64,000 nt of DNA from a virus (taxonomy: Duplodnaviria > Heunggongvirae > Uroviricota > Caudoviricetes), in the IMG/VR virus record IMGVR_UViG_3300042346_001601; one strand, 5' to 3'. The notes beneath the pieces were generated by a model. That model did not search any database. It worked only from the letters and a program-made list of their open reading frames with translations, and had not been told where the DNA came from. Numbering within the stretch: the first letter of the stretch is position 1; each line of letters starts with the position of its first letter. The translations under genes and the position numbers were made by a program. Positions 147 through 62,707 of the stretch are shown here, one piece after another.

Positions 147-455
147 ATGGCTTACCGTATAGTTCTCCGTCAGGACACCTCAACCAACTGGACCTCCAAT
201 AACCCAACTCTGTTGAGTGGAGAATTTGGGTTTGAAACCAACACTTATAATCTTAAATTAGGCAACGGGGTTTCAACCTGGACATCTTTACCTTATTGGA
301 ACTCGATTGTAGCTGGTCCTGCTGGGGCTCCTGCCACCGGAGGATCTACTGGAGCAACTGGACAAATGGCTTTCACTGGTAGTTCTACCGGAGGGTATCT
401 TTATGTCTGTGTTGCAGGTTCTACCTGGTTGAGAACAGAATTGACTAGTTTTTAA
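147..455 (+). CDS. phage tail-fibre-like small protein (conserved fibre-type N-terminal domain plus Gly-rich stretch)
   Basis: N-terminus MAYRIVLRQDTSTNWTSNNPTLLSGEFGFETNTYNLKLGNGVSTWTSLPYW matches the widespread phage tail-fibre N-terminal motif (RxDTxxNWTxxNP..GExGxETdT..KiGdG.t.W..LPY), followed by Gly/Ala/Thr-rich collagen-like segment. Only plus-strand gene in the first 57 kb. Confidence 0.5.
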   Translation: MAYRIVLRQDTSTNWTSNNPTLLSGEFGFETNTYNLKLGNGVSTWTSLPYWNSIVAGPAGAPATGGSTGATGQMAFTGSSTGGYLYVCVAGSTWLRTELTSF

Positions 456-2480: not shown

Positions 2481-2738
2481 CTAATAAATATGTACAAGTT
2501 CAGTATTTATATCATCGAGTTTTATCCCTTTTTCTAACACATTTTGAATGAAATTAAGAGCATCATCATAATTATAAAATCTAGTAAGGCCGGTATATTC
2601 CCCACCATCATAATGTCTTATAGACTTCCAATAAGGTATTCCTATAAAGGTTTTCCTTTTTTTAATCCAAAAAAATGGTGTACCTTCTTTACCATACTCA
2701 TCTACATACACACTTTTAAATATTTTGTAGTTGCTCAT
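2481..2738 (-). CDS. hypothetical protein, paralog of 25296..25565
   Basis: C-terminal ...YDDALNFIQNVLEKG resembles ...LKDAIDFVENVHSG of ORF 25296..25565. Confidence 0.45.
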   Translation of the reverse strand: MSNYKIFKSVYVDEYGKEGTPFFWIKKRKTFIGIPYWKSIRHYDGGEYTGLTRFYNYDDALNFIQNVLEKGIKLDDINTELVHIY

Positions 2739-3304
2739 AAAAAATCAGGTTTTTTGTAATACTCCCATACTTCATCCAATTGTTTTGGGTCTTTTACCCA
2801 CATAATCCAATCATCTTTTTTAATTTCTTCCTCCAACACATCAATGTAAAATGTTTTTGGTGTAAATGGAAATCCTTTAATTTCCAAAGAACTATGAAAT
2901 CGGTTTGTATTGTTGATAGCATCCTCTCGAGTCATGTAAATAGGTCCTGACCAAGTTGTTCCATTAGGACATCTTTTGATAATAGCGTCATTATATGTAA
3001 CCCTACCATCCTTATCCTTAAACAATCCACCCTCTCTTTTGTTTTGATACCAAGGTTTACCTGCTAAATCACTAACATTTCCCCACTCTTCATCTTTACC
3101 TGTAATAGGCCCCAGTGGTTTGTAGTTAGCTAATTTGTGAAATAAAGAGGCTACAATCGGTGCTGAACCACCTGAGTGTCCTTGTTTTTCAAATACCTCC
3201 ATTAGTTCCATAACTGCCTCTCCGATGGCTCCTCCATAGTCAGAATCTTCTCCAAAGAAGCCTGCTAATTCTAATTCAAATTTTGCGTGTGATGTTGTGC
3301 TCAT
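2735..3304 (-). CDS. hypothetical protein
   Basis: 189-aa ORF, ATGA start/stop overlap with downstream gene; no motif recognised. Confidence 0.5.
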   Translation of the reverse strand: MSTTSHAKFELELAGFFGEDSDYGGAIGEAVMELMEVFEKQGHSGGSAPIVASLFHKLANYKPLGPITGKDEEWGNVSDLAGKPWYQNKREGGLFKDKDGRVTYNDAIIKRCPNGTTWSGPIYMTREDAINNTNRFHSSLEIKGFPFTPKTFYIDVLEEEIKKDDWIMWVKDPKQLDEVWEYYKKPDFL

Positions 3305-4003: not shown

Positions 4004-4573
4004 TTACCTTTGTTCCATGTAGGTTTTCCCTTTTTTGGTTTCACTTATTTTGTTACTATGTTCTTTTGTTCTTGGTGGTTTTGGTTTCCTTAATTTTTCT
4101 CTATTCTCTCCTTTTTTCATTGGATTATTATCACCTGATAATGCAATGCTCATTTTATATCTATACTCATCAGATTTATGAAATCCATGTGATATTCTTT
4201 TTTGTATTGTTTCTTCGGATTGCGTTACCCCAATTTGATATTCTCTTAATTTTTGTTTTTGCTCTTCTGTTCTTGCGTATCTTAACTTTTCTCTAACTTC
4301 ATCTGATGGATTGAATAACCCCTCACCCCCATCTGTCATATTTGTCAACATATCTCTACCATATTTTTGAATTAAATATTTTTCAGTGTCACATGCACCT
4401 TCCCATTCAATATCCGATTCAATAATTTCAACATCATATCCATATTTAGCAACAACGTTTTTCCAATGTATGTTTCTATTTCTATAAGAATAAGCTCTTT
4501 CTTCATAAAGGCCAATCCCAACATAAAAAACTTCATTAGTATTTTTCTTTTTGTGTAAATAAACAACTGCCAT
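4004..4573 (-). CDS. GIY-YIG family homing endonuclease (freestanding, I-TevI/Seg-like) with C-terminal NUMOD-like basic tail
   Basis: N-terminal VVYLHKKKNTNEVFYVGIG...YSYRNRNIHWKNV...KYG fits the GIY-(x10)-YIG..R..H..N motif; lysine-rich DNA-binding C-terminus. Sits 71 nt downstream of thyA C-fragment, like I-TevI and td in T4. Confidence 0.8.
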   Translation of the reverse strand: MAVVYLHKKKNTNEVFYVGIGLYEERAYSYRNRNIHWKNVVAKYGYDVEIIESDIEWEGACDTEKYLIQKYGRDMLTNMTDGGEGLFNPSDEVREKLRYARTEEQKQKLREYQIGVTQSEETIQKRISHGFHKSDEYRYKMSIALSGDNNPMKKGENREKLRKPKPPRTKEHSNKISETKKGKTYMEQR

Positions 4574-4644: not shown

Positions 4645-5445
4645 TCAATTGGACAGGGGCGCTTTAATTGTTGGATGTGATACATAATTTTCTAAAATAA
4701 TATCTCCTGGCATAAATGATTCGATACCATCTCTAACGTGAACATTTGGTAGTCTAAATGGTTCTCTTTTTATTTGCTCTTTTGCTTGTTCAATATGATT
4801 TAAATACAAATGTGTATCTCCTAAATTACCAATCAATTCATCAGGTATCATTTGTACTTCATCTGCAATCATTTCCAATAATAATCCATAAGAAGCAATG
4901 TTGAATGGTAAACCCAAGAATGTATCTACTGAGCGTTGATTCCACATTAGAGAGATTGCTCTGGTTGGAACTTCGGCTTCATTCATTATTTTAATATTTA
5001 ACTCTTTAATATGTTCTCGGGTTTCCATTTTAAATCTTTCTGTTGATTGAAATATATTACACCGTTCTTCATAACTTAACTCTCTTGTATAAACTTGAAA
5101 TCCATAATGACAAGGTGGGAGAACCATTTGGTCTAATTCACCTACATTCCAAGCCGAAACCATTAATCTCCTACTATCAGGATTTGTTTTAAGGTCGTTG
5201 ATTAGGTTTTGGATTTGGTCAATATACTGTGTTCCTTTTACATATAAGGGTTCAATATCATCACCATCATCAATTTTTAATGTTGTTGGAATAGCAACTT
5301 CGGTTTTCCATTTTCTCCACTGTTTACCATAAATTGGTCCCAAATCACCCCACTTCTTAGCAAACTCATCATCTGTTTTGATTTTGTTGATGAATTCTTC
5401 TTGGGTGTATGGTCTTCCATCTGGGTGTAAGTGTTCTTTATTCAT
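4645..5445 (-). CDS. thyA: thymidylate synthase ThyA, C-terminal fragment (from GDLGPIYGKQWR to C-terminus) with own ATG and 30-aa N-extension
   Basis: Contains canonical TS motifs DLGPIYGKQWR, DSRRLMVSAWN, LPPCH (catalytic Cys), QRSVDTFLGLPFNIASY, GDTHLY. Lacks first ~85 residues of TS, which are encoded by ORF 6454..6771. Confidence 0.9.
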   Translation of the reverse strand: MNKEHLHPDGRPYTQEEFINKIKTDDEFAKKWGDLGPIYGKQWRKWKTEVAIPTTLKIDDGDDIEPLYVKGTQYIDQIQNLINDLKTNPDSRRLMVSAWNVGELDQMVLPPCHYGFQVYTRELSYEERCNIFQSTERFKMETREHIKELNIKIMNEAEVPTRAISLMWNQRSVDTFLGLPFNIASYGLLLEMIADEVQMIPDELIGNLGDTHLYLNHIEQAKEQIKREPFRLPNVHVRDGIESFMPGDIILENYVSHPTIKAPLSN

Positions 5446-6409
5446 AACTTTTTATTTCATTTTTTAATTGTTCTAAATCAATATCACATCTTTTACTTTT
5501 AGTTCTATTACTACTCCATTCTATCATTTGTAGATTACAGTGATGACTAATAATTTCAGGTTCTACATTATTCAAAAATCCTTCAATTATTGAGTATTTG
5601 TGGTCTAATTGGAACCCAATTTTTCCATTTGTTACTCTTTCTAAATTATTTGGGTTTATAATGTTTTTATACATTTTATATGTTGTTTCAGTTAATCGTT
5701 TAACTTTTTTTCTATAAATTTGGTAATCCGACAAAAACTCATCAGGTATTATCCATCCTCTTTCGATTTTTGTTTTAATACCATTACCAATTCTATTTTC
5801 CGAGTTAATATTAGCGGAATTATTAACCCCGTATTTATCTTTTAATACTTGCTTTATTTTCTCTTTTATACTGTGAGATTTAAACGGGTTGTCAACACCA
5901 TACTTTTTAATCCAAGTATTTAACGCTTTTTGTTTTATTGCATCACTATGAAAAGAATGTTCAACACCATATTTTTTAATCATAGTTGATTTAATTTTCT
6001 TTTTTAGTTCAGGACTTTGTAAAGTATAACCACCGTATTTTTCATTAACAGTTTTACGTCTTTTATTATTTCTTATGATTTTATCTGTTTCCGATAAACT
6101 ATTATATCTTTCTCTAAATTTATTTTTAGTTAGTTCCGAATTGTTATTACACTTTGCAGAACAAAATTTTCTATTCAAATCAATAATTGGGTTACCACAA
6201 TGGAAGCAAGTATTAACGGAGTTTCTATCTTTCAAGATATACCTTATCCTATCAACCAATTTAGGATTGTAAATAGTTAGATATTGAGTACTATCAATAA
6301 TATCCTGTTTAAGTGATGATTCAATTACTCTTAATTTTTGAGACAATATTTTATACTCATTATTTTTTATAACACACAAGGTTGTTTCAATTTTAGTTTT
6401 TAGACACAT
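5438..6409 (-). CDS. HNH homing endonuclease with NUMOD-like KYG repeats, inserted between the two thyA fragments
   Basis: C-terminal QLDHKYSIIEGFLNNVEPEIISHHCNLQMIEWSSNRTK = HNH motif (DH..N..HH.NL); repeated KYGV.NPF/KYGVEHSF modules; Cys cluster CFHCGNP..CSAKC. Stop overlaps thyA-C start (TATGAATAA). Confidence 0.8.
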   Translation of the reverse strand: MCLKTKIETTLCVIKNNEYKILSQKLRVIESSLKQDIIDSTQYLTIYNPKLVDRIRYILKDRNSVNTCFHCGNPIIDLNRKFCSAKCNNNSELTKNKFRERYNSLSETDKIIRNNKRRKTVNEKYGGYTLQSPELKKKIKSTMIKKYGVEHSFHSDAIKQKALNTWIKKYGVDNPFKSHSIKEKIKQVLKDKYGVNNSANINSENRIGNGIKTKIERGWIIPDEFLSDYQIYRKKVKRLTETTYKMYKNIINPNNLERVTNGKIGFQLDHKYSIIEGFLNNVEPEIISHHCNLQMIEWSSNRTKSKRCDIDLEQLKNEIKSYE

Positions 6410-6453: not shown

Positions 6454-6771
6454 TTATTTTTCCTCATCTTTCTTTAACTTCTCACATTCTTTTAGGTATG
6501 CTTGATAAGCATCCCCCGTCCAAATGTTACAGTCATTTTTAAGAAGATACTCTATTGATGTATCGCCTCTTAAAAACCAAAGTAATTCTGTACATATTGA
6601 CTTCCACGCCATTTTCTTGGTTGTAAGAAGTGAAAACCCTTCACTCATTTTATGACGGATTTGTCTACCAAATACTGAAATAGTACCAGTACCTGTTCTA
6701 TCTTTCTTTTCCACTCCATTATCTAATATATCTTGGAGTAGTGATTGATACTGTTTATCGAGGTTGTTCAT
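6454..6771 (-). CDS. thyA: thymidylate synthase ThyA, N-terminal fragment (residues ~1-85) ending in its own stop codon
   Basis: [84 protein letters not shown] aligns to E. coli ThyA 1-85 (KNDRTGTGTLSIFG...FPLVTTKR...ELLWFLQGDTNIAYL...NVTIWD). Confidence 0.9.
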
Positions 6772-9954: not shown

Positions 9955-10306
9955 TGGTTAGTGCTTTAATTAGTGCATCCGCTTTCATTACTTTAATTTT
10001 TGCCTCTACAAGCATCCACCATTTCATTCTTTCTAAATCAGGAGAACGCGGAATATCTGAATCCATTAACGGCCTAACCGTGTCATAGGTATAATCATCC
10101 ACCGGCATAATAGAAGCAAAGTACTCGCGCTTGGTTAATTTGCCATGAATAAAATCGTCTGGGTGTGTTTCGTTATTGCTCATAGTGGGCAATTCAATAG
10201 GGGTTACATACTCGTCAATGTATTGCATGATGTGTTTTGCGTCTATCATTGACACCTCGCATTTTTCAGCGGCAGTTAAAAACATCTCTTTTGTGTATAG
10301 TTTCAT
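9932..10306 (-). CDS. hypothetical protein, MKLYTKE-family
   Basis: Starts MKLYTKE with conserved nucleotide leader (plus strand ttttgtgtatagtttcat) shared with 10330..10662 and 15212..15475. Confidence 0.5.
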   Translation of the reverse strand: MKLYTKEMFLTAAEKCEVSMIDAKHIMQYIDEYVTPIELPTMSNNETHPDDFIHGKLTKREYFASIMPVDDYTYDTVRPLMDSDIPRSPDLERMKWWMLVEAKIKVMKADALIKALTNEHASKF

Positions 10307-10329
10307 AGTTTGGTTTGGTTTAGGTTGGG

Positions 10330-10662
10330 TTACACGATTCTACCCTTAATCGCACCTGCATAATGTTTGACAAATTTTTCGACTTCAACTTTTAATTCGT
10401 CAAGAGTATCGGTTTTAAACTCTTTCCTCAAAATTTCATCATCAAGGAAATACACTTGGACTGTTCCTTCCCAAAAATTACCAATGTTTTTATGTGGTGG
10501 ATAAAACCTGCTGCTAATTGACAGCAAGGAGCCATCAAAGTCCAATTTAAATCCACAGTCCCATTTCCATTTTGGTTCATTGTGTATTTCCTTTTTTTCG
10601 TTTGCTTTGGCTTCCCAGAGCATTGCAAAATCCCAATCCAATTCTTTTGTGTATAGTTTCAT
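10330..10662 (-). CDS. hypothetical protein, MKLYTKE-family
   Basis: Starts MKLYTKE; identical 18-nt start region as 9932..10306. Confidence 0.5.
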   Translation of the reverse strand: MKLYTKELDWDFAMLWEAKANEKKEIHNEPKWKWDCGFKLDFDGSLLSISSRFYPPHKNIGNFWEGTVQVYFLDDEILRKEFKTDTLDELKVEVEKFVKHYAGAIKGRIV

Positions 10663-10675
10663 AGGTTAGTTTGGT

Positions 10676-10936
10676 TTAGGTTGGCATGTAATCTTCAAAG
10701 TCCTTTTTTGCTTTTTCCATTTTTTCTTTCAATCGGTTTTTTTCATCCACGATAATTGCAGACGCTTGCTCTCTTGAGATTTTAAATTCATAAATTTTCG
10801 TTCCATGGTTATAAAGCGTAATTTGAGGAGTAGTGTATTGTTGGTTTACTCCTGCAGCAAAGGATTCGTAATCAGCGACAGCCCTGTTGAGCTTATCCAT
10901 AAGCTCTCTTGCGTGGTTTAATTGATGGTGATTCAT
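10676..10936 (-). CDS. hypothetical protein
   Basis: minus-strand tiled ORF. Confidence 0.45.
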   Translation of the reverse strand: MNHHQLNHARELMDKLNRAVADYESFAAGVNQQYTTPQITLYNHGTKIYEFKISREQASAIIVDEKNRLKEKMEKAKKDFEDYMPT

Positions 10937-10949
10937 GGTTTAGTTTGGT

Positions 10950-11690
10950 TTAGTAAATGTATTTCCCTACCCATTGGGTATGACCTTCGGGGGTTGTTGT
11001 TTCCTTATGTACTTTTTTCAAAGGACAGGTAGGTATTTCTTTTCTGATAGATTCATATTGAGACTCATCAAACTTAACCCAACCGGCTTCTGTGCCATAA
11101 TAATATTCACTTGACATATAAAAATATTGTATCTCACATTCAAACGCAGTAGGTAATTCGGGTTGTGATAAAGATTCAACATAATTATCAAACCACTTAG
11201 TATATTTTGAAATAGCTTGAATCATATCCCACGCCGTAACATCTCCTGTTGGAAGTAGAGTAACTAAATTGTTTCTAATTGTAAGCATATCCTCATTGGT
11301 GTACTTGTACTTCTCTTTGGCCTTGTTGTAGCCATTTATAAAGCCAGCCTTTAAGTAACCAGTATAATTAAAAAATTCGTTTGGATCATCATCACATGAT
11401 TGACTCTGCTCGCTGTATTCTCTTTCCGCTAACTCTTCAACTTCATCTTCAAGCGGTGGTAGCAAATCCACACCTTCAAGGATTGGAAAGTCATTAAGTG
11501 GTAGATGAGCAATGATTTTTTTGAAATTAAGTCCATTTTTCCCATTATCTGAGATTACATTTTTGTTGACTCTACCGATTTTAGCATTAAACAGAGAAGT
11601 CTCACCAAGAAAACACCAATCACCCTCTTTAATCTCTGAATCATCAACCACCAACAGGTAGTCTTTTGTGTGAATTAGGTTGTGTGGCAT
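10950..11690 (-). CDS. hypothetical protein
   Basis: 246-aa ORF; no motif recognised. Confidence 0.5.
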   Translation of the reverse strand: MPHNLIHTKDYLLVVDDSEIKEGDWCFLGETSLFNAKIGRVNKNVISDNGKNGLNFKKIIAHLPLNDFPILEGVDLLPPLEDEVEELAEREYSEQSQSCDDDPNEFFNYTGYLKAGFINGYNKAKEKYKYTNEDMLTIRNNLVTLLPTGDVTAWDMIQAISKYTKWFDNYVESLSQPELPTAFECEIQYFYMSSEYYYGTEAGWVKFDESQYESIRKEIPTCPLKKVHKETTTPEGHTQWVGKYIY

Positions 11691-18875: not shown

Positions 18876-19193
18876 TTACATATTTTTAATTTCTTTTTCT
18901 ACCTCCACCCAGAATGTTGTTTTGGGATGGTTTGCCCAATAACAGGTTTCCGATTCTTCGTCATCATCTTTCATAAACTGGAATATTTCACCAACAACAG
19001 CAAGAGCTGATTCTTTCCATTTTGGATTTGAATAGAAACTTTTGTATTCACCGGTTGTTACTTCATAAACTTTATTAGTTGAAAATCCAACCGACCCGAC
19101 TATTTGAAGTGCCTTTTCTTTTGGTGTAATTGTGATTGGTTTGTATTTAGACATAGAATTTTTTTGAGTTAAAGAGCTTATTTTCAAGCTCAC
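18876..19193 (-). CDS. hypothetical protein
   Basis: 105-aa ORF. Confidence 0.45.
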   Translation of the reverse strand: MSLKISSLTQKNSMSKYKPITITPKEKALQIVGSVGFSTNKVYEVTTGEYKSFYSNPKWKESALAVVGEIFQFMKDDDEESETCYWANHPKTTFWVEVEKEIKNM

Positions 19194-19573
19194 AGAACAA
19201 TTTCGAATCTTTCCTTCATTTGGAGGATTCTTTCGTCAGGTACTCCGTGGACATTCTTTCCCCCGTGTCTGTTTTCAACAATCAATGAAAAAACGGTGAA
19301 TCCGTATTTTTCTGCAAGTTCATAATAGGCCGACATTTCCCATTTTCTGGTGAAAGTGTTGGACACGACTACCTTATCTTCTCCTCTACTCATAGCAGTT
19401 TCTGCAGTTTTTTTGCACCACTCGTGAGCTTCTTTGAGCAGAAGAGGATCAAATTTATATTCGTTGTCTTTCATGAAGAACATATCAGCCTCGACGTGAG
19501 AACCCCCGATTGCTTTGGCTAGGGTGGATTTTCCAGCCCCTGGGCAGCCTCTTAATAAAAATAAAGATTTCAT
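19190..19573 (-). CDS. P-loop polynucleotide kinase-like protein (T4 Pnk kinase-domain-like, stand-alone)
   Basis: Walker A LLRGCPGAGKSTLAK, compare T4 Pnk N-terminus LTIGCPGSGKSTWA; small (127 aa) kinase encoded directly downstream of the HAD phosphatase. Confidence 0.6.
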   Translation of the reverse strand: MKSLFLLRGCPGAGKSTLAKAIGGSHVEADMFFMKDNEYKFDPLLLKEAHEWCKKTAETAMSRGEDKVVVSNTFTRKWEMSAYYELAEKYGFTVFSLIVENRHGGKNVHGVPDERILQMKERFEIVL

Positions 19574-19591
19574 CCTTTTGTCGAATTTGTT

Positions 19592-20047
19592 TTAGAATGC
19601 TCCGTAGTTAACTTGAAAACAGGCAATACCTTGGTCCCTCCACATTTTTACTACTTTATCTCTATCATCATAAACGCACATTATTTCATTTCCCTCCGAG
19701 ATAAATTTATCCATCCATGCCTTCTTCAAGACCTCGTCCGGGGTGTAATCGTGATGTGATCTCATTTGGAGGAAATCAGGCACGATCCCTTGATCACCCA
19801 ACCACTGCTCGGTTTCTTTTCTGGAAATCTCATCTCTCCCCGAGAAAATCCCTACCTTTAATCCTGCCTGCTTTAAAAACTGAAAAGTTCGGATAACTGG
19901 TAAATTGGGCTCATCCAATTGGATGTTCTCAGGAGCAAAAAATTCTTTCCAGTTCAATTTGCCAGTTGGCAGAGTAGCCTTGGATCTTCTTTTTTCGATC
20001 AGAGCCAGGGTTCCATCCAGATCGAAAATAACCGATAATTTTTTCAT
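19592..20047 (-). CDS. HAD-superfamily phosphatase, polynucleotide 3'-phosphatase-like (Pnk phosphatase-domain-like, stand-alone)
   Basis: Motif I VIFDLDGTL (DxDxT), motif II FSGR, motif III K...YDDRD; same architecture as T4 Pnk C-terminal domain. Confidence 0.7.
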   Translation of the reverse strand: MKKLSVIFDLDGTLALIEKRRSKATLPTGKLNWKEFFAPENIQLDEPNLPVIRTFQFLKQAGLKVGIFSGRDEISRKETEQWLGDQGIVPDFLQMRSHHDYTPDEVLKKAWMDKFISEGNEIMCVYDDRDKVVKMWRDQGIACFQVNYGAF

Positions 20048-22264: not shown

Positions 22265-23335
22265 CTATTCGTTTTTAAGTAAAAATCTGTTGCTGATGAC
22301 CTTGAAAGAAATAGTTGTGTCCATGCTGCGAATGACCAATCCTTCCCTCTCGGCATTGGGGTTGAGAACAGATTTCCCTTCAGTCTGCTGTAAGAGTTCT
22401 TCGATGGTGTCTGGTAGAAGAAACTCAGTCCCGAGAATCGGTACGGTCTCAAATCCTAAGTCTTCCATAAGGGAGATAAAAGATCTGAGGTTGAATCTTT
22501 CCTGTTTATCAATGTCAAAAGCATTGTAGAAACGAACGGTATGACCTTTGAGCTTGTAAGGATTCTTCTGAATTCCTTCCCCGATCAATTCACCCTGAAT
22601 GCAAAGGTTAAGACCAGTATCCAGTAGCTTCTTCTTGATGTCCATTTCACGGGCCACTTTCCAGAAAGTGTTTTCCCGCTTAGGCCGTTCGATCCCATCA
22701 TCGCACAGTTCCGTTCCTGACACAAATTCACCTGGTTCTGCCAACTCGAGATTTCTAGAGCAAACCCCAAATTCACCGTCTTTGACATAAAATGATGCGG
22801 AACTGCCGTCCAACTTTTCGGTTGCATAGAACTGGTGTTTACTGGTGATCTTCCATTCTTCGTATTCTCTAGACAAATTTTGGACCCTTTCCTCATCGGT
22901 TCGGCGGAGAAAAGAAGGAAAGTAGCCTTTTACTTTGCCAGCCAGTTCGGCGGGAATGGGTGGTTCGTATTTAATCACCCCAAGAATTTCGGTTACATCC
23001 ATGCCAAGATATACATTTCCCCTAACGGGAAGCACATTCAGGGGCATGAGCAATCCCTGGGATAATTCTCCTTTCAAACGGATGGTCTTGAGTCTAAATC
23101 CCTCGACATCTCCCATTTTCTTGAAAGATGATTTTCGGAGAAACTCAAATTCATCCCGGACCGGAAGAAAAGAATCAATCTCAAAATAAACACAGGTATC
23201 TCCAGGTTTAAACTCTCCTTTCTTGGTTACCACCTGCCACCCATCAACAACAGCCAATTCGATGGCGTCTGCTCCTTTGATGGACTTGATCTCCTTGACC
23301 AATCTGATGGAAGCTAATTTTCTGGTTTGTTCCAT
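22265..23335 (-). CDS. ATP-dependent RNA ligase, DraRnl/NgrRnl (Rnl5)-like with N-terminal OB-like domain
   Basis: N-terminus LASIRLVKEIKSIKGADAIELAVVDGWQVVTKKGEFKPGDTCVYFEIDS typical of this ligase family; nucleotidyltransferase motif I ATEKLDGSSASFYV (KxDG). Confidence 0.8.
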   Translation of the reverse strand: MEQTRKLASIRLVKEIKSIKGADAIELAVVDGWQVVTKKGEFKPGDTCVYFEIDSFLPVRDEFEFLRKSSFKKMGDVEGFRLKTIRLKGELSQGLLMPLNVLPVRGNVYLGMDVTEILGVIKYEPPIPAELAGKVKGYFPSFLRRTDEERVQNLSREYEEWKITSKHQFYATEKLDGSSASFYVKDGEFGVCSRNLELAEPGEFVSGTELCDDGIERPKRENTFWKVAREMDIKKKLLDTGLNLCIQGELIGEGIQKNPYKLKGHTVRFYNAFDIDKQERFNLRSFISLMEDLGFETVPILGTEFLLPDTIEELLQQTEGKSVLNPNAEREGLVIRSMDTTISFKVISNRFLLKNE

Positions 23336-24098: not shown

Positions 24099-24230
24099 TA
24101 GTCAGGACAGGATTCGAACCTGTACGTGGGTTGAGTCCTTTGAGAATAACACCTTTCGGTCTCTTGAGTCTCTCCTGCAACATCCCCCACAGCTTTAGCT
24201 TACTTGCTTCTACCATTCCGCCACCTGACT
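24099..24230 (-). tRNA. tRNA-like element, 132 nt: canonical acceptor stem and T-arm, noncanonical/expanded centre
   Basis: Minus-strand RNA 5'-AGUCAGG UG GCGGAAUGGUAGAAGC...ACAGG UUCGAAU CCUGU CCUGACU A-3': 7-bp acceptor stem, U8, tRNA-Leu-like D-loop GGAAUGGUAGA, perfect T-arm GGUUCGAAUCC; but ~80 nt between D- and T-arms (possible intron or long extra arm closed by GUGGG/CCCAC). No anticodon arm could be assigned by eye. Confidence 0.45.
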
Positions 24231-34079: not shown

Positions 34080-35156
34080 TTAAATTTTATAAAATTGGGG
34101 TTTTATTATTTTCCAAATTAATGAGGAGTATTCCTTACGATCGTACATTTTAAATAAAAGGGAAGGATTTTTGTATTTTTTTGCTTCTTCGGCAAAACTA
34201 GCTCTCCACTTGAAATCTTTTATGCTCTTGAGGGTGTCGAAGATAGCCAAATACTCCTTCTCTACCTCCTGGTATTGACTTATCAGCTCGTTGGCATATC
34301 CTGTCACCTTTCCATAAAACTCATCGGGGGTGTCGACAAGGATGGCTGACATGTCACCTCCGGTAGACAAGACCTCCCAGATCGAAGTGGAAGTAACATT
34401 TGTCATTATTCTGTGCAACCTGAGATACTCCTCAAATTTAATTTTCATCCGAAAGTTACCAGGTTGAAATCTAAGAACGAAACCCTCCTTGTTAACATCG
34501 TTCTGTGCCTTCAAACTACGGTATAACTGATCGGAAAAGTTAAAATGCTGCTTTGTTTGGGTGATGTCTTTATCAGAGACACCGTTGAACTTAAAGACAT
34601 CACAGGCCATAGACCAATGTAATTCTTCTTCGTTGGTTTGTTTGTAAAAATTATTGGGGACCGCAGATAAAAATATGACTTTTTCTTCCCCGTAATTTAC
34701 AACGATACGATTTTCCGGGTAGATGATCTCAACCAAGTACGCGTATTCTTTTATCCAACTATCCAACTTGTATTTGGATTGAACCATCTCTAATCCCTTT
34801 ATTGCCTGGTCTGAGGTAAAAGAACCCCGGGTAGCCATAATCCATTCACCCTCGTAGTAAAACAGTATGCCTAAAGAGCCATCCGCCTTTTCCTGCACAT
34901 ACACACAGTCTCCTTGGGTTGGAATTTGTCCTTTGTTCACAATTTCTTCGTAGTTGAAAAACTTTGGAAAGGGTTTAACAAGGATCCCGCCGGTAACATC
35001 ATCGGTAATAAGACCTCTACACATAAGGGTCACATCGTCCCATAATCCATCGTATTGAACCTTTTCGCTGTAGTTCCAAATTGTCAGCGGAAAGCGAGGA
35101 TGGGACTGGGAGTGGAGCAGGCCCCTTTCCTTATAATCTTCTAGTACGTTTCTCAT
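34080..35156 (-). CDS. RNA ligase, T4 Rnl1-like
   Basis: MCRGLITD / PFPKFFNYEE / VQEKADGSLGILF align with T4 Rnl1 ECRGIMFE / PMEKFFNLNE / LTKEDGSLVSTY (motif I lysine KxDGSL). Confidence 0.8.
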   Translation of the reverse strand: MRNVLEDYKERGLLHSQSHPRFPLTIWNYSEKVQYDGLWDDVTLMCRGLITDDVTGGILVKPFPKFFNYEEIVNKGQIPTQGDCVYVQEKADGSLGILFYYEGEWIMATRGSFTSDQAIKGLEMVQSKYKLDSWIKEYAYLVEIIYPENRIVVNYGEEKVIFLSAVPNNFYKQTNEEELHWSMACDVFKFNGVSDKDITQTKQHFNFSDQLYRSLKAQNDVNKEGFVLRFQPGNFRMKIKFEEYLRLHRIMTNVTSTSIWEVLSTGGDMSAILVDTPDEFYGKVTGYANELISQYQEVEKEYLAIFDTLKSIKDFKWRASFAEEAKKYKNPSLLFKMYDRKEYSSLIWKIIKPQFYKI

Positions 35157-43617: not shown

Positions 43618-43652
43618 AACTGAGATTATATATCTGCATCAGGACTCATTTT

Positions 43653-57014: not shown

Positions 57015-57407
57015 TTATCCCTCTGTCTGGGAATTTTTTTTGTTTGAAATATCGTTGAACCTCATTTGGCTCAACTCGTAATTTGCATTCACCTGAGCCC
57101 AGAGCTTATCGCATCTGGAATCCAACTGCTTTTGTAGAGATTCAAATTGTTCTCTTCCCGATCTGATTCCGACTTCTTCTCGTTTATTGATTTCGTCGAG
57201 AACTTCATCGATCCGATTGTGGATGTAAGAATCATCGGAGTGTAAATTGTTCCTTGTAATTTCAATCTCTTTCATGACCGATTCGATGTGGTCGGAGATT
57301 TTGGTTCTGATTTTTCGGTCTAAATCCGAATTCATCTTAAACACACCCGCCACGGTGACCAAGACCACCACGGTAAGCGCACCTAAAAGAAAATAAAGTA
57401 TTGCCAT
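57015..57407 (-). CDS. hypothetical membrane-anchored coiled-coil protein
   Basis: N-terminal TM helix MAILYFLLGALTVVVLVTVAGV. Confidence 0.45.
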   Translation of the reverse strand: MAILYFLLGALTVVVLVTVAGVFKMNSDLDRKIRTKISDHIESVMKEIEITRNNLHSDDSYIHNRIDEVLDEINKREEVGIRSGREQFESLQKQLDSRCDKLWAQVNANYELSQMRFNDISNKKNSQTEG

Positions 57408-57471: not shown

Positions 57472-57504
57472 TTTCAAAAAAAAGTTTGTCTTACGACAAA
57501 CTTT
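57472..57504 (-). terminator. rho-independent terminator downstream of tmRNA
   Basis: perfect 10-bp hairpin AAAGUUUGUC-GUAA-GACAAACUUU followed on minus strand by UUUUUUUUG. Confidence 0.65.
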
Positions 57505-57944
57505 TGGTGGAGCTGGGCGGATTCGAACCGCCGTCCTGCTAGGTAATTCCATGAAACTCGTTCACAGGCTTAGTCCATTTTTCTAAACAGACAAATCTTT
57601 ACCTCCTAGTTTTTGACTGTGATAGGAGATAATCCACATCATCGATCCCTACAGCGATCTGAAGGGTATTGGACCGGAGCCCGCAGGGTTACTGAGGATC
57701 GACGGATTGTGTGGTACTGTTAACCCTTTTTCCCACCCTCGTGACTTTCTGTTCCTGGGTGTCACCCCCCGAGGTTTAGGCTGCCAAGGCAACTTCAACC
57801 GGCTCCGCTGAACCTAGTCCAGCCAAAGCAAAAAATGGATTTTCGCCATTTAAGAAGTACTTAGGATATTTAGGTGCTTCCAAAGCTAGCACCGCCTGCA
57901 TCATGTCAAAGAACTTATGCCTCCAGTCGATTCCTTTCAGCCCC
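57505..57944 (-). ncRNA. ssrA: tmRNA (ssrA), ~440 nt
   Basis: 5' end GGGGCUGAAAGGAAUCGACUGGAGG (cf. E. coli GGGGCUGAUUCUGGAUUCGACGGG), 3' tRNA-like end GGUUCGAAUCCGCCCAGCUCCACCA, internal tag reading frame ...GSAEPVEVALAA-UAA ending in the canonical ALAA degron. Confidence 0.85.
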
Positions 57945-58048
57945 ATTTTTTATATATTTCATCATTCTAAAAAACCCCGAATTTTTCTCTGAGATGGAAC
58001 GGAACCGTTTACGAGAATGAATATATAGTGCAAATGTAAAAAAAATTT

Positions 58049-60514
58049 ATGAAAAGAATATCCAAGAATTACAAAAAATTAAGATTATTCGAATCTGAGG
58101 AAGAACTAAAAGTCCCAGATGATGAAAAGCTTTGGCAAGCATACGGTGAGGATATGACCAAAGCAGCGAAGGAGGGAGAGATAAATGAAGTAATTGGAAG
58201 GGATAAGGAATTGGAACAGTTGCTTCGCATTCTGGCCAGGAAAACCAAGGATAATCCAGTTTTGGTTGGAGAGCCGGGCGTTGGAAAAACCGCTATTGTG
58301 GATAAGCTTGCTCTTTTAATGGCAAGCGATAAATGTCCCGGTTTTTTAAAGGGGAAAAAGTTAATAGATTTGACCTGGGCATTTAAAAAAATAGTTAATG
58401 GAGGTTATTTACCCCTTTTGGCCCGTGAAATTGAGGAAGATAACTTGATTATTTTTGTGGACGAACTCCATTCTCTACCTAAAGCAAGTTACGATGAACT
58501 CAAACCCTTTTTGGCTAAAGCCAAACTTCATATGATCGGTGGTTCCACTTATAGTGAATATGGTCAAACTATTGAGAAAGACGGAGCCATGGAAAGAAGA
58601 TTTCAACCGATCAAAGTTGAAGAGCCTACCTACGAGGAATGCATGGAAATACTTAGAGAAATCCAAGAAAAATATGGGGATTGGCATCATGTTAATTATT
58701 CACCAGAAGCCTTAGAATCCTTTTATAAACTATCTAAGCAGTATATTAAAGACCGATTTTTGCCAGATAAAGCTATCGACTTGATGGACGAATCCGGTGC
58801 ACGAATTCGCATTAAAAATGCCCCGGATGCGGAGGTTGCGAATCTAGAAAAGAAAAATTTAGAACTCCTAGACCGGATCAGGCAAAAGACGGCAGAAGGT
58901 GACTATGATGCTGCTGCAGATCTATCAGATGAAAAAGAAAAGATAGAGAGTCGGCTTGAAAAAATGGCTGCGAAAGGTCAAATGGGACCTAAAATTACCG
59001 TCACTAAAGAAATGGTGGAAAAACTAGTGGCAGATAAAACAGGGATTCCTGTTGAAACGATGAAAAAGGGCAGTAAGGCAATCCTAAAAGGAATGTCAAG
59101 CAGACTGAAATCAAAAGTTATCGGTCAAGACGAGGCGGTAGAGACCGTTGTTAGAACAATTAAAAGAAACAGGTCGGGTCTTAAAGACCCTAATAGACCT
59201 GAAGGGGTATTTTTATTCGTGGGCCCTACTGGGACAGGTAAAACCTATTTGGTGAAAAAATTGGCTGAGGAGCTTTTTGGATCTAGGGAATCTAAATTGA
59301 TTAGGATTGATATGAATGAATATTCGGAGGCTCATACAGGATCTAAATTGTTTGGATCACCTCCCGGTTATGTAGGTTATTCGGAAGGAGGCAAACTAAC
59401 AGAGCAAGTCAGAAGAAACCCTTATTCGGTAATTTTGCTAGATGAGATCGAAAAAGCAAACCCTCAAGTTATACAATCCCTGCTAGGGGTGCTAGAAGAT
59501 GGAAGGATGACGGACGGGCAAGGGAGAACGGTTGACTTTACAAACTGTGTTATTATCATGACTTCTAATGTGGGATCAAAAACAGGATCTAAAAAGGTTA
59601 AATCAAAGGAACCCAGAAAAGCGATTGGTTTTTTGGTTAAAGATGAACCAGAAGATGAAACAAAACAGACTGGAGCAGAATCACCTGAGGAAATCAAAGC
59701 AAGAGTCGATGCAGCGATCAAAAAAGAGTTTTCGCCCGAATTTATTAATAGAATAGATGATATTGTTATTTTTCAGTCAATAGACCAAGAATCAATAAAA
59801 AAGATTGCAGAAAAAGAGCTCGAGAAGGTGGCAGATAGGATTAAAAATACCCAAGACATTAATCTGACTTGGGGAACTTCGGTTTACAAGTTGTTACTTA
59901 AACACGGATTTGACCCTGAATATGGGGCTAGACCCCTTAGAAGAGCAGTGGAGAAATATATCAAGGACCCTCTAGCCAATTTTATAATCGAGGAAGAGAT
60001 TGAGGAAGGATCCAACCTCAAAATTGATTACGATTCCTTGGCAGATGAGTTAGTCATTAACGGAAAGAAAATTTCAGAGTTATCTGAATCTAGACTCAGA
60101 AAAATCCACAAAAGTTTTTCTTTGTTCGAATCTACAAGTCCTAGAAGAATCAATAGTTTTTCAGAATTTAGCGATAGATTAGACGAGGCGGAAACAGAAA
60201 GGGAGAAAGAAGAGGAAAAGGGAAAACCAGCTCCTTTGCCTAAACCACTGCCTAAACCACTGCCTAAACCTACGCCTAAACCACAGCCTAAGCCTACTCC
60301 TAAACCTACACCCAGTGAGGATGAAGATGAGGATGAGGATTTTGATCCAGATGCAGAACCGGTCCGAAGAATAACTCCTCATCCGTCAATTGCACCACGA
60401 ATTAAAGTTCCTTCTCATGCTCCTGGACCCCAAGCAATAAAGAAAAAAGCTTCAGAGATGGATGTGATCAAAAGGTACATATCAGAACTCAAAAAAAGAA
60501 AACCATTTTACTAA
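58049..60514 (+). CDS. ClpC/ClpB-family two-ring AAA+ unfoldase lacking the N-domain, with short middle coiled coil and proline-rich acidic C-terminal tail
   Basis: D1: IGRDKELEQLLRILARKTKDNPVLVGEPGVGKTAIVDKLA; D2: VIGQDEAVETVVRTIKRNRSGL...FLFVGPTGTGKTYL...ILLDEIEKANPQV; sensor-2 GARPLRRAV; C-terminal PKPLPKPLPKPTPKPQPKPTPKPTPSEDEDEDEDFD. Confidence 0.85.
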   Translation: MKRISKNYKKLRLFESEEELKVPDDEKLWQAYGEDMTKAAKEGEINEVIGRDKELEQLLRILARKTKDNPVLVGEPGVGKTAIVDKLALLMASDKCPGFLKGKKLIDLTWAFKKIVNGGYLPLLAREIEEDNLIIFVDELHSLPKASYDELKPFLAKAKLHMIGGSTYSEYGQTIEKDGAMERRFQPIKVEEPTYEECMEILREIQEKYGDWHHVNYSPEALESFYKLSKQYIKDRFLPDKAIDLMDESGARIRIKNAPDAEVANLEKKNLELLDRIRQKTAEGDYDAAADLSDEKEKIESRLEKMAAKGQMGPKITVTKEMVEKLVADKTGIPVETMKKGSKAILKGMSSRLKSKVIGQDEAVETVVRTIKRNRSGLKDPNRPEGVFLFVGPTGTGKTYLVKKLAEELFGSRESKLIRIDMNEYSEAHTGSKLFGSPPGYVGYSEGGKLTEQVRRNPYSVILLDEIEKANPQVIQSLLGVLEDGRMTDGQGRTVDFTNCVIIMTSNVGSKTGSKKVKSKEPRKAIGFLVKDEPEDETKQTGAESPEEIKARVDAAIKKEFSPEFINRIDDIVIFQSIDQESIKKIAEKELEKVADRIKNTQDINLTWGTSVYKLLLKHGFDPEYGARPLRRAVEKYIKDPLANFIIEEEIEEGSNLKIDYDSLADELVINGKKISELSESRLRKIHKSFSLFESTSPRRINSFSEFSDRLDEAETEREKEEEKGKPAPLPKPLPKPLPKPTPKPQPKPTPKPTPSEDEDEDEDFDPDAEPVRRITPHPSIAPRIKVPSHAPGPQAIKKKASEMDVIKRYISELKKRKPFY
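60235..60312 (+). repeat. tandem ~12-nt repeats (cctaaaccactg-like) encoding (PKPx)n
   Basis: cctaaaccactgcctaaaccactgcctaaacctacgcctaaaccacagcctaagcctactcctaaacctacaccc. Confidence 0.7.
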
Positions 60515-60518
60515 GAAT

Positions 60519-61535
60519 ATGTCACTAAAAGCCAATTTCACAAAGAATTTTGCATCCTTTAATGAGGCTATTAGGGTTAAAGACATGGTGAGTATTCCCC
60601 CCGACTACCTAGAGGATGTCACGAGAAGAGCTAAAGAAAAACTCGGCATCGGGAAAACTCCCGAGGGATCCCCGCAAGGAATCAGCCAAGCCGTTAGCCA
60701 GTTGATGGGAAATTTTTCGAGATCCCAGCAACTTTCTAGAGGGTATGAAAAGGAGCTAGAAGATCTAGCAAGAGAAATAATTACAGATCTATACAAGCCC
60801 CTCATTGATTACTACGACATAAAGCTTGAAATTAAACTAGTACAGGGACCAGAAATAAGGAGGATGTTGGATGACAGCTTTAGAAAAACAAGACAAAAAA
60901 ACAGACCTCGACCGGATTCTAAACCAGTAATTAAAGCTTTAGGAGCGGATTTCAGCATGCTGATTCATGAGGCAGTCAAAGGAATTTGGAGGGTTATGTC
61001 AATGTCTGCAGTACCAGATGACCCTGAACTAGCCAAGGCTATTGAAGATCAATTCGGATTGATAGACGAACCGGACGAATGGAGATATGGTCCTCAAATG
61101 GCCGAAGATCTAAGAAAATTTATCTTTGAGAATCCCAAGGTCATCAAATATTCTAATTTGAGAGAGGAACTTTGGAAATATATGGTGGATCCAGAGAATT
61201 TACCCACGGCTGAATTTTTACCTCTGATGACAGGAATTTTTAGAAAAACTCCAGAAGCCAGAAAAAAAATCGATGAATTGATTGATGTAGTCATTGAGAG
61301 GGTGGAAGCCAGAGATGCCTGGCTGGAGCAGGATAGAGCCGATAAGGCTGAGTATGAAAGGAAATTAGCAGCATGGAAAGCCAGACAAGCTGCCAAATCC
61401 CCAAGTGGTTCAGAATCACAGATCACCAAAGATTACGCTAGTATGTCCCAAGAAGAACTAAAAAGGGAATACAGAAAGGCCGACGAGGAGGGAGATTTTG
61501 ATAAAATGATGGAAATCTCTGATTACATAAAATAA
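60519..61535 (+). CDS. hypothetical protein co-transcribed with ClpC-like gene
   Basis: 338 aa, starts 4 nt after clpC-like stop. Confidence 0.5.
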   Translation: MSLKANFTKNFASFNEAIRVKDMVSIPPDYLEDVTRRAKEKLGIGKTPEGSPQGISQAVSQLMGNFSRSQQLSRGYEKELEDLAREIITDLYKPLIDYYDIKLEIKLVQGPEIRRMLDDSFRKTRQKNRPRPDSKPVIKALGADFSMLIHEAVKGIWRVMSMSAVPDDPELAKAIEDQFGLIDEPDEWRYGPQMAEDLRKFIFENPKVIKYSNLREELWKYMVDPENLPTAEFLPLMTGIFRKTPEARKKIDELIDVVIERVEARDAWLEQDRADKAEYERKLAAWKARQAAKSPSGSESQITKDYASMSQEELKREYRKADEEGDFDKMMEISDYIK

Positions 61536-61543
61536 ATTTTACT

Positions 61544-61822
61544 ATGGATAAATTCATGTCAGAAACAGAGAAAAGGAAGATGCTGAATTTGATTGGCCAG
61601 GGAGAAGCAAAGAACACCAAAAAAATCTTGCAGTTACCCGAGATAAAAAACAAATTGAAAAAAATTATGGGGGATGAAAAAGGTCAGGAATTAGCTAATT
61701 GTCTATTGGAACTTGCCAATTCAGCAGATAGACTAGATTGGTTGGATTGGACAGAAAACAGAGGCAGACAGATGGAACACGGAACATCATTTGGCGGGGG
61801 TTATTATGTTGAATGGGAATGA
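61544..61822 (+). CDS. hypothetical protein
   Basis: 92-aa ORF. Confidence 0.4.
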   Translation: MDKFMSETEKRKMLNLIGQGEAKNTKKILQLPEIKNKLKKIMGDEKGQELANCLLELANSADRLDWLDWTENRGRQMEHGTSFGGGYYVEWE

Positions 61823-62139
61823 AAGATCTACAGAAATTTTTCGGCACAATTAGGGTCAAAATGTTTTGGCTCTGCCGAGAGCTAGTTTACATGTACAGTC
61901 CCAAGAAATCTTTTTTTTCAAAGAAAAGAATAGAATCTAGTTTGGCTTTTGTTATTGGGCAATGGGGCATGATCTTCTGGATGTTAGAAAAACACTCTGA
62001 ATTGTCTGCCTCTGATGTTGCCATCTGGGCGGGGATCGAATTTGCGATTGCCGGGTACATCATGACCGAAATCCAGAAAGAAAAAAAGGAGGTTTCTCGA
62101 AACGCTGATGATTTCGAAGAACCTCCTATTCACTCTTAA
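61813..62139 (+). CDS. hypothetical membrane protein
   Basis: 108 aa, two TM helices. Confidence 0.4.
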   Translation: MGMKDLQKFFGTIRVKMFWLCRELVYMYSPKKSFFSKKRIESSLAFVIGQWGMIFWMLEKHSELSASDVAIWAGIEFAIAGYIMTEIQKEKKEVSRNADDFEEPPIHS

Positions 62140-62146
62140 TATCCCT

Positions 62147-62707
62147 TTAAATCAGAGAACGGTTGACTGTTCGGTTACTCACCCCACCTACACCTGGGTA
62201 GGAAGAGTACATGTTTTTAGGATCTTTGATGGTGTTGTCCGTTGGAGAATGTGTATTTTCAGTCAGGTCCATGTGCTTTTTGATGAAACGATAAAGTCTT
62301 TGGCATTCATCATCGATATCCGCCAAATCCAATTCACTTCCTCCCCATCTGATGGAAGGGTCTTGTGGATCGCACATAACAGACAGATTTCTAGGTCCCA
62401 GATGGCAAATTAAAGCCGGATATTCTCCACTGATGTCTCTGACGTTGGAGATATAACCTTGATAGGGAGGATTTTCAATTTCTTTGTAAATTTGTCCTAA
62501 TCTTTCCCGATCCTTGCTTGATTCAATACCAAACAGGCTTTTTGTTTTTCTTTTCATGGTTTGTAACATGCCTGGGGGTTGGTACCTTTTGTAGCCATAG
62601 CCGGCATCTTTCCATCCCTCCTGTAAAGGATCAGAAGATTCTGGAGTAAAATTGTCGTAAGAGATAATATTTTTCATAAAGTCTTTTTTTTTAAGAATGA
62701 GTGTCAA
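62147..62707 (-). CDS. hypothetical protein
   Basis: 186-aa ORF. Confidence 0.45.
   Translation of the reverse strand: MTLILKKKDFMKNIISYDNFTPESSDPLQEGWKDAGYGYKRYQPPGMLQTMKRKTKSLFGIESSKDRERLGQIYKEIENPPYQGYISNVRDISGEYPALICHLGPRNLSVMCDPQDPSIRWGGSELDLADIDDECQRLYRFIKKHMDLTENTHSPTDNTIKDPKNMYSSYPGVGGVSNRTVNRSLI

Follow-up and report, generated by a model that had tools for sequence, protein, structure and literature searches.

A tmRNA gene beside a derived ClpC-type ATPase gene in a variable slot of large phage genomes

We analyzed a stretch of 64,000 nucleotides (hereafter the window) from a virus of the Caudoviricetes (IMG/VR record IMGVR_UViG_3300042346_001601), in which a gene for transfer-messenger RNA (tmRNA; ssrA) lies beside a divergently oriented gene for a Clp-type AAA+ ATPase. 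Judged from sequence comparison, the tmRNA is an intact gene under selection, with its own promoter-like motif and terminator, and the ATPase is a derived ClpC-type enzyme rather than a host-derived ClpB. By the gene order of related phages, an inverted four-gene clpC cassette sits exactly in the place of ClpP, and on the same evidence the pairing of tmRNA and clpC is recent and not a conserved unit. Our preferred reading, to which we assign a probability of about 0.5, is that the locus represents one variable slot within a long block of minus-strand genes in a large (>200 kb) aquatic phage, a slot that holds "translation damage control" genes.

Large phages carry pieces of the translation and proteostasis machinery, and how these pieces cooperate is the wider question. 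Phage tmRNAs, SmpB and Clp genes are already known. Huge phages carry tmRNAs and SmpB (Al-Shayeb et al., 2020; PMC7162821), and phage G encodes a tmRNA, ClpX and ClpP from genes that are not adjacent (PMC12484599), so the combination of a tmRNA with a Clp unfoldase has precedent among phages. In phage G the unfoldase is ClpX and the genes are far apart, whereas here a ClpC-type ATPase or ClpP is encoded directly beside the tmRNA. A literature search of limited reach found nothing on a linkage of tmRNA with ClpP or ClpC, on this tag family or on this ClpC subfamily. The locus and its relatives show a phage tmRNA family with a long selected tag, a derived ClpC subfamily, and a ClpP or ClpC cassette alternating beside the tmRNA.

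Locus states and cassette exchange

The window is part of a 118 kb JGI contig (Ga0453949_0000005), and the same phage is present in more than 50 collection blocks, on contigs of up to 0.2-1 Mb. The first-pass annotation, whose span (57945-60514) takes in the spacer and clp with the tmRNA itself just to its left, described a tmRNA gene divergent from a Clp ATPase gene. This arrangement is real: the tmRNA matches its Rfam model at 72.1 bits, and 104 bp separate it from an open reading frame (ORF) for 821 amino acids (aa). To the left of the pair is a conserved gene for a 130-aa protein (w130; 57015-57407, minus strand), and to the right a gene for a 186-aa protein (w186; 62147-62707, minus strand), which is followed by thioredoxin. 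The clp gene is the first of an inverted cassette on the plus strand, the remainder of which (60519-62139) encodes proteins of 338, 92 and 108 aa.

The loci of related phages, numbered here with the prefix L, occur in four states that have common flanking genes. In state A (L034/L019, L121, L129, L132, L154, L161, L166, L182 and L183), genes for a w186-like protein, ClpP, an AAA_33 kinase, tmRNA and w130 follow each other on one strand, and the order ClpP, AAA_33, tmRNA recurs in at least nine contigs. The gene just upstream of ClpP retains the C-terminal 35 aa of w186 (L034, L121, L161, L166, L182), and w130, which is 86-94% identical across state A and state C loci, is directly downstream of the tmRNA. 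State D (L280-L282) has w130, tmRNA and AAA_33 on one strand and, after 139 bp, the clpC-338-92-108 genes on the other; w186 is 76% identical over its full length, the Clp protein is 78% identical to that of the window, and only ClpP is replaced by the inverted cassette. State B, which comprises the window, L012, L117 and L195-L197, is like state D without the kinase, with the tmRNA 104 bp from clpC. In state C (L013/L014, L024/L025) the tmRNA is absent and clpC abuts w130 across a 120-bp spacer. Because the four states share their flanks, the adjacency of tmRNA and clpC is a product of cassette exchange and not an ancestral divergent operon. One metagenome holds both state A (L182, Ga0214923_10001832) and state D (L281, Ga0214923_10000193), thus the ClpP-type and clpC-cassette variants co-circulate.

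Genes for the 338-aa and 92-aa proteins are behind clp in every member of the ATPase clade described below, and the pair also occurs without clp in L026-L033. Neither protein has a match in Pfam, NCBIfam, PDB or BFVD. Both were examined as adaptor candidates, and AlphaFold2 (AF2) modelling gave an all-alpha fold with a long coiled coil. A major strand switch or an origin at the GC-skew flip near 58 kb was considered and rejected; the plus-strand genes form an island limited to 58049-62139, after which minus-strand genes resume.

The divergent spacer (57945-58048) contains two back-to-back ATATATA(R) promoter-like motifs, one facing the tmRNA (57950-57957, minus strand) and one facing clp (58021-58028, plus strand). 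A scan of the spacer for consensus promoters and terminators returned nothing useful. Between the window and L012 the spacer is about 75% conserved, and the 5' end of the tmRNA is the same at 57/58 positions. Ahead of clp, the motif is 20-35 nt from the ATG in each of the eight lineages compared (the window, L006, L008, L010, L013, L015, L024 and L280); ahead of the tmRNA, it is 6-12 nt from the +1 position in states A, B and D. It is also found, as (G)ATATATA(R), before other genes of the window (at 43626, 54222, 125 and others). The value of the motif comes from this conserved position and not from overall enrichment, as the whole window contains 11 copies of ATATATAR against 6.4 expected, a number that was reached in 6 of 100 shuffles and is not significant. 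We conclude that ATATATA(R) is probably a general phage promoter element rather than a private shared control region. The 104-bp control region that the two genes had been proposed to share is thus not upheld: each gene has a motif of its own, and the adjacency is not conserved (L013/L014, L024/L025, L280-L282).

The tmRNA gene and its family

The tmRNA is of the one-piece type with an encoded CCA (57505-57944, minus strand). It matches the full length of Rfam model RF00023 (model positions 1-374; 72.1 bits against a gathering score of 47, E 4e-26). Direct reading of the sequence gives a 7-bp acceptor stem (GGGGCUG/CAGCUCC) with a G3.U pair, and a T arm of the form GGCGG-UUCGAAU-CCGCC. The G3.U pair is a mark of alanine acceptors. 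The tag reading frame (57847 to 57776, minus strand) begins at a GGC resume codon and runs for 23 codons to a TAA stop, encoding GENPFFALAGLGSAEPVEVALAA, a peptide with a hydrophobic end of the degron type. A tRNA-like domain of the alanine-charged type and the ALAA end, the classical C-terminal degron, are shared with the bacterial SsrA/SmpB-ClpXP/ClpAP pathway, whereas the tag is more than twice as long as that of E. coli. Directly 3' of the CCA is an A/T-rich hairpin with a T-run (57474-57504, minus strand; AAAGTTTGTC-GTAA-GACAAACTTTTTTTT), a probable terminator that is also present behind the tmRNA of L034. The consensus scan was silent here because the stem is too poor in G-C pairs.

Two independent pattern scans of IMG/VR and metagenome contigs, one for the tmRNA 5' end and one for the start of the tag, yielded 31 distinct members of this family. 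The tag-start scans, which used 21-mers, also matched a "GENPFFK" coding motif on Mb-size bacterial contigs; these matches are protein-coding and were set aside. Identity to the window copy falls to 70%, and tag codons 7-23 still give nearly the same peptide, with synonymous variation that includes five different Leu codons at position 8 and CTT or TTG at position 21. Codons 1-6 carry no weight for conservation, as they were fixed by the search pattern in most family members. The peptide is 23-24 residues long across the family and conserved. In a consensus fold of 16 members, the acceptor stem is retained, its G.U pair being invariant, and 20 pairs covary in all, with compensatory changes in the T arm and in several internal helices. 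The central pseudoknot region aligns weakly to the Rfam model (accuracy 0.62); several central helices covary in the RNAalifold fold, a method unable to model pseudoknots PK1-PK4. The sequence of the window tmRNA is identical in L195, an independent assembly, and identical copies occur in assemblies from many samples.

ARAGORN called neither a tmRNA nor a tRNA in the window. We regard its silence on the tmRNA as a false negative, since Rfam, an acceptor/T-arm finder and ARAGORN itself on near-identical relatives all support the gene; in L119 and L161, which are 89% identical to the window tmRNA, ARAGORN calls the same tag, GENPFFALAGLGSAEPVEVALAA. The program also misses the tmRNAs of L117 and L195-L197, and it gives wrong tag frames in L019, L132, L154 and L182. 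Surveys that use ARAGORN only will undercount phage tmRNAs or assign them the wrong tags.

Searches of the locus and of the tmRNA against GenBank phages with BLAST gave no close relative. The sole match in a genome collection that carries the tmRNA is L192, a contig binned to a Saprospirales metagenome-assembled genome. This is probably a phage contig that was binned into that genome, and the binning is a weak hint to the host.

The ClpC-type ATPase and its C-terminal extension

The ATPase is a class-I AAA+ protein of 821 aa (2466-nt ORF; 58049-60514, plus strand). Pfam identifies AAA_lid_9, AAA_2 and ClpB_D2-small. Clp_N (PF02861), the N-terminal repeat domain that serves in ClpC as a dock for adaptors and arginine-phosphate, was not found in the protein by Pfam, and only 104 bp lie between the ATG and the tmRNA. 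Ring D1 extends from about aa 28-45 to about 257, the M-domain from about 258 to 315, D2 from about 345 to 575 and D2-small from 579 to 662. Walker A and B motifs, sensor-1 and Arg fingers are kept in both AAA+ rings. The M-domain, of about 55 aa, aligns without a break to that of ClpC and is predicted as two helices (261-282 and 286-308) in the AF2 model, which has a predicted local distance difference test score (pLDDT) of 70-90 over the AAA+ core. The earlier description of an unfoldase lacking the N-domain and having a short ClpC-like M-domain is thus borne out.

The closest relatives of solved structure are B. subtilis ClpC, M. tuberculosis ClpC1, ClpE and S. aureus ClpC. Each of these aligns in one stretch over residues 32-662, whereas the long M-domain of ClpB splits its alignment in two. 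The protein shares with ClpC, ClpC1 and ClpE (B. subtilis ClpC, 3J3S; M. tuberculosis ClpC1, 8A8U) two catalytic AAA+ rings, a short coiled-coil M-domain, a D2 GYVG pore loop, a (V/L/I)GF loop and D2-small, at 42-46% identity over residues 32-662. It differs from them in the absence of Clp_N and of a UVR Pfam match on record, in deletions of the D1 pore-1 loop and of the loop after Walker B, in an IGF loop about 15 aa longer and in a 160-aa C-terminal extension. Homologs in the databases form two groups. One is a clade of proteins of 755-826 aa, 45-92% identical, without a Clp_N or UVR Pfam match on record; the other consists of ordinary cellular ClpC, 42-46% identical, with 46% as the maximum for any clade member against cellular ClpC. 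The deletion of the D1 pore-1 loop (KYRGEFE) and of the loop after Walker B is found in the whole clade and in this clade only. As the GYVG loop of D2 is present, substrates may be gripped by D2 only.

The check for an IGF/L loop in D2 that the first-pass annotation had called for returned A-I-G-F at aa 525-528 (59621-59632, plus strand), the ClpP-docking tripeptide, inside a flexible loop of aa 513-543. G527 and F528 are invariant in 12/12 clade members, at 50% overall divergence, and in cellular ClpC, and every phage Clp ATPase in the comparison has the docking tripeptide at the same position. The AF2 model leaves this loop disordered, which is as expected. The enzyme thus looks built for ClpP docking. 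Among NCBIfam models, that for ClpB scores highest, but its 620 bits fall far short of the cut-off of 1232 bits. ClpB and Hsp104 have an M-domain of about 120 aa and no ClpP loop; here the M-domain is short and an IGF loop is present. These two features and the ClpC-like alignments are our grounds for setting the protein apart from a host-derived ClpB. A linkage missing from related genomes and an ordinary host-derived ClpB were the two outcomes against which the first-pass annotation had set its reading; the linkage is indeed not conserved in relatives, but the protein is not an ordinary ClpB of host origin.

Comparison with Clp homologs of other large phages, also proposed at the outset, identified ATPases of 659-710 aa without an N-domain that are only 40-45% identical to the window protein (large-phage contigs of IMG/VR, where such proteins are common; huge phages LR745206, LR756502 and LR756508). 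They have in common with it the missing N-domain, a ClpC-like M-domain and an xGF loop, and they are often encoded 1-4 kb from a phage ClpP. Unlike the window protein, they retain the D1 KYRG loop and lack a C-terminal extension.

The C-terminal extension (aa 663-821, about 160 aa; 60036-60511, plus strand) is specific to the clade. Motifs conserved in all 12 members are an LVINGK strand, LFES, F-x-x-F, a linker rich in Pro, and P-G-P-x-A-x-K-K-K-x-x-E-x-D-V-x-K-R-x-L-x-x-L-K-x-R-K; the extension ends in a conserved helix that is basic and amphipathic (aa 803-817). Tandem Repeats Finder located an (L/T)PKP repeat (60237-60306, plus strand; 12-nt unit, 5.8 copies) and an E/D acidic block (60316-60340, plus strand; 6-nt unit, 4.2 copies). 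These repeats occur only in the window protein and its nearest relatives, P0001 and, in shorter form, P0002; other clade members have a shorter Pro-rich linker. Both arrays, PKP and acidic, arose by recent tandem expansion of the DNA. The AF2 model is disordered over aa 717-798 (pLDDT <50), with the terminal helix (803-817) at about 75. A phmmer search of the tail against 1.84 billion representative proteins returned one clade member and low-complexity matches, and no homologs outside the clade. The tail had been called unlike known Clp proteins, and this agrees with the search, in which only low-complexity sequence matched it beyond the clade; the tail after about residue 662, with its PKP and acidic arrays, is real. 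One guess is that it acts as a tethered adaptor or docking peptide.

Partner genes, mechanism and genome context

The ClpP of state A has a Ser-His-Asp triad and matches NF011091 at 249 bits, and scores as a true ClpP and not as a prohead protease. In L008, a ClpP-SmpB operon with overlapping stop and start codons lies 2.5 kb upstream of the clpC-like gene, and in L010 ClpP is likewise beside the clpC-like gene. SmpB is encoded in relatives L008, L057 and L287-L292, and in L057 and L060 it is no more than 6 kb from a Clp ATPase. Among 80 ClpP-centred IMG/VR loci, a two-ring Clp ATPase is within 10 kb in 27, an AAA_33 kinase in 30 and SmpB in 13, directly downstream of ClpP in nine of the latter. 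Several 270-kb contigs encode a phage ClpP and an N-domain-less Clp ATPase about 26 kb apart. Chance can hardly explain why the gene that alternates with clpC in this slot is that for ClpP. For the phage group as a whole, these arrangements support the rescue-plus-proteolysis idea in part.

ClpP to SmpB operons (L287-L292, L329, L335, L340; ClpP at about 10001-10654, SmpB at about 10678-11091) and Clp ATPase to ClpP pairs (L302-L364) are common in IMG/VR contigs of 100-430 kb. This type of phage ClpP carries a conserved extension at its N-terminus (...SSLTPYILEERE), and IMG/VR contains over 530 relatives of it.

Under the preferred reading, the tmRNA would be charged with alanine by the host alanyl-tRNA synthetase via the G3.U identity element, and SmpB would be supplied by the host or by an unseen part of the phage genome. 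The tmRNA would rescue ribosomes stalled during infection and add a tag ending in ALAA. A hexamer of the ClpC-like ATPase would dock through its IGF loops on ClpP, either that of the host or a phage copy encoded elsewhere, and would thread substrates with its D2 pore loops only. The choice of substrates may have moved from the N-domain and adaptors of the MecA/ClpS type to the C-terminal extension or to another phage protein. Chains tagged by the tmRNA are plausible substrates of the ATPase. The window also encodes a Pnkp-like kinase and phosphatase, Rnl1-like and Rnl2-like RNA ligases and Tad3, and this RNA-repair set and Tad3 would fit a counter-defence toolkit that keeps translation running under host attack. 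The locus thus offers a concrete system in which to ask whether phages couple ribosome rescue to proteolysis, possibly against RNA-cutting defences, and how a ClpC-type motor selects its substrates without an N-domain.

Several observations weigh against such coupling. SsrA-tagged proteins mainly go to ClpXP and ClpAP, and to ClpC-type enzymes in some organisms only. The adjacency of tmRNA and clpC is limited to two sub-lineages (states B and D, with Clp proteins 78-100% identical), and most members of the tmRNA family lie in tRNA arrays with no Clp ATPase within reach. No tmRNA was identified within 10 kb in the distant clade members L006, L008, L010 and L015. As the contigs are interrelated, they represent few independent linkage events, perhaps 4-6 arrangement types. 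With its D1 pore loop lost, the ATPase could do something other than unfold substrates processively. The partners are assumed, as neither ClpP nor SmpB was identified from 7.3 kb before to 71.5 kb after the start of the window (79 kb of a >200-kb genome); ClpX, ClpA and SspB were also not seen in the window. The first-pass annotation had suggested a self-contained module for tagging and degradation. What stands of this is that trans-translation parts are repeatedly found beside Clp parts in related phages, but self-containment is unproven, with no ClpP or SmpB in the 79 kb. The search for clpP that it recommended was negative over the same interval but located ClpP in the same slot of sister phages, and beside the gene in L008 and L010.

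The two genes could instead be incidental neighbours. The slot between w130 and w186 would then be a recombination hotspot in which the tmRNA and the clpC cassette arrived independently, and the ATPase would have a job that does not involve the tmRNA, for instance the removal of defence or regulatory proteins of the host or the remodelling of phage assemblies, together with the 338-aa and 92-aa proteins or ClpP. We treat this as a tentative but real possibility. State C, with clpC directly beside w130 and no tmRNA, is in its favour, as are the location of most tmRNA family members in tRNA arrays and the ATATATA motif, which is common to other genes so that no private co-regulation is implied. 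Further, only one of the 80 best IMG/VR Clp-ATPase loci (L223) has a tmRNA within 10 kb, and VOG02072 ("ClpA") was reported in 24 genomes of a freshwater large-phage lineage with the tmRNA unmentioned (PMC12619734). However, the gene that takes this very slot in other phages encodes ClpP, with which ClpC-type ATPases work as partners, and several lineages have SmpB immediately downstream of ClpP; the 338/92 pair can also be found in the absence of clp and is therefore no dedicated cofactor. The ATPase could also be a ClpP-independent chaperone or disaggregase (ClpB/ClpG-like) or an assembly factor, with the IGF-like tripeptide a relic. The top score to the ClpB model, the lack of a nearby ClpP within the 79 kb around the locus, the lost D1 pore loop and a long tail that could tether the protein to a structure are consistent with this. 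We consider it unlikely given the short M-domain, the continuous alignment to ClpC, ClpC1 and ClpE where ClpB aligns in two pieces, the invariance of G527 and F528 in a disordered loop of ClpC-like length or longer, and the ClpP with intact catalytic residues that relatives encode in the same slot or beside the gene.

It is very improbable that the tmRNA is a decaying or non-functional copy, either a remnant of integration at a host ssrA or a tRNA-like decoy, that tags nothing. The missing ARAGORN call, the poor alignment of the central pseudoknots and the absence of SmpB from the window could be taken in this sense, but the gene matches the Rfam model over its full length above the gathering score, is identical in independent assemblies from many samples, and has its own promoter-like motif and terminator. 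The tag peptide is held through synonymous changes, and 20 pairs have compensatory changes. Moreover, integration remnants hold only the 3' part of ssrA, and this gene is complete. Extending the preferred reading, one may imagine a private degradation code in which the 23-residue tag is read by the phage ClpC, without N-domain or D1 pore loop, and not by host ClpX/SspB. The C-terminal extension, a flexible Pro-rich rod with an end helix, would be a built-in adaptor, and the alternating ClpP and clpC cassettes would be interchangeable "halves" that each commandeer the complementary half from the Clp machinery of the host. The phage would control the clearance of rescue products and perhaps of host proteins that defence nucleases have truncated. 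We think this extension improbable. If coupling fails altogether, the locus still illustrates clearly how cassettes are exchanged at a hypervariable slot in the genomes of large phages.

In L223 (5277-12022), genes for an M28 peptidase, a tmRNA with the tag GNNSTHIFNQYPLVGNTQTQYAVAA, a ClpP 63% identical to that of E. coli and a Clp ATPase with an N-domain occur within 7 kb. Either this is a second tmRNA-Clp cluster of independent origin, or it is host DNA at the edge of a prophage.

By gene content alone, the window resembles the "Moraphages", large freshwater phages with predicted Bacteroidota hosts, most of which (24 genomes) encode the Clp ATPase VOG02072, along with glutamine synthetases and many glycosyltransferases (PMC12619734). 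The window has a glutamine-synthetase-like gene and a sugar-modification cluster, and it too comes from freshwater. Linkage of Clp to a tmRNA or ClpP is unmentioned in that paper.

Genes of the RNA-repair set (19190-20047, 22265-23335 and 34080-35156, all minus strand) encode a split Pnkp, in which an AAA_33 kinase adjoins a HAD_PNKP phosphatase, and ligases of the Rnl2/PHA02142 and T4 Rnl1 types. The AAA_33 kinase has a 54% identical paralog between ClpP and the tmRNA in sister phages. The Tad3 (anti-Thoeris) homolog is at 2735-3304 (minus strand). A tRNA-like gene (24099-24230, minus strand) has normal acceptor and T arms and a middle insert of about 65 nt; it scores 31.5 bits to the Rfam tRNA model, just above gathering, is not called by ARAGORN, and could be a tRNA that is degenerate or contains an intron.

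An Mtd_N (major tropism determinant) protein is encoded at 147-455 (plus strand), adjoining a stretch (456-2700) with few ORFs and higher GC. Thymidylate synthase is present as two ORFs (6454-6771 and 4645-5445, minus strand) with a DUF7487 gene (5438-6409) between them and a NUMOD3-type gene (4004-4573) alongside, and looks like a gene split by a mobile insertion. A fragment of DNA polymerase B (379-384 aa) is encoded in the phage of the window, 7 kb right of the window end (L195, 15497-16636), and in a state D relative (L280, 15539-17218) DNA polymerase B is 559 aa long with an intein-splicing match.

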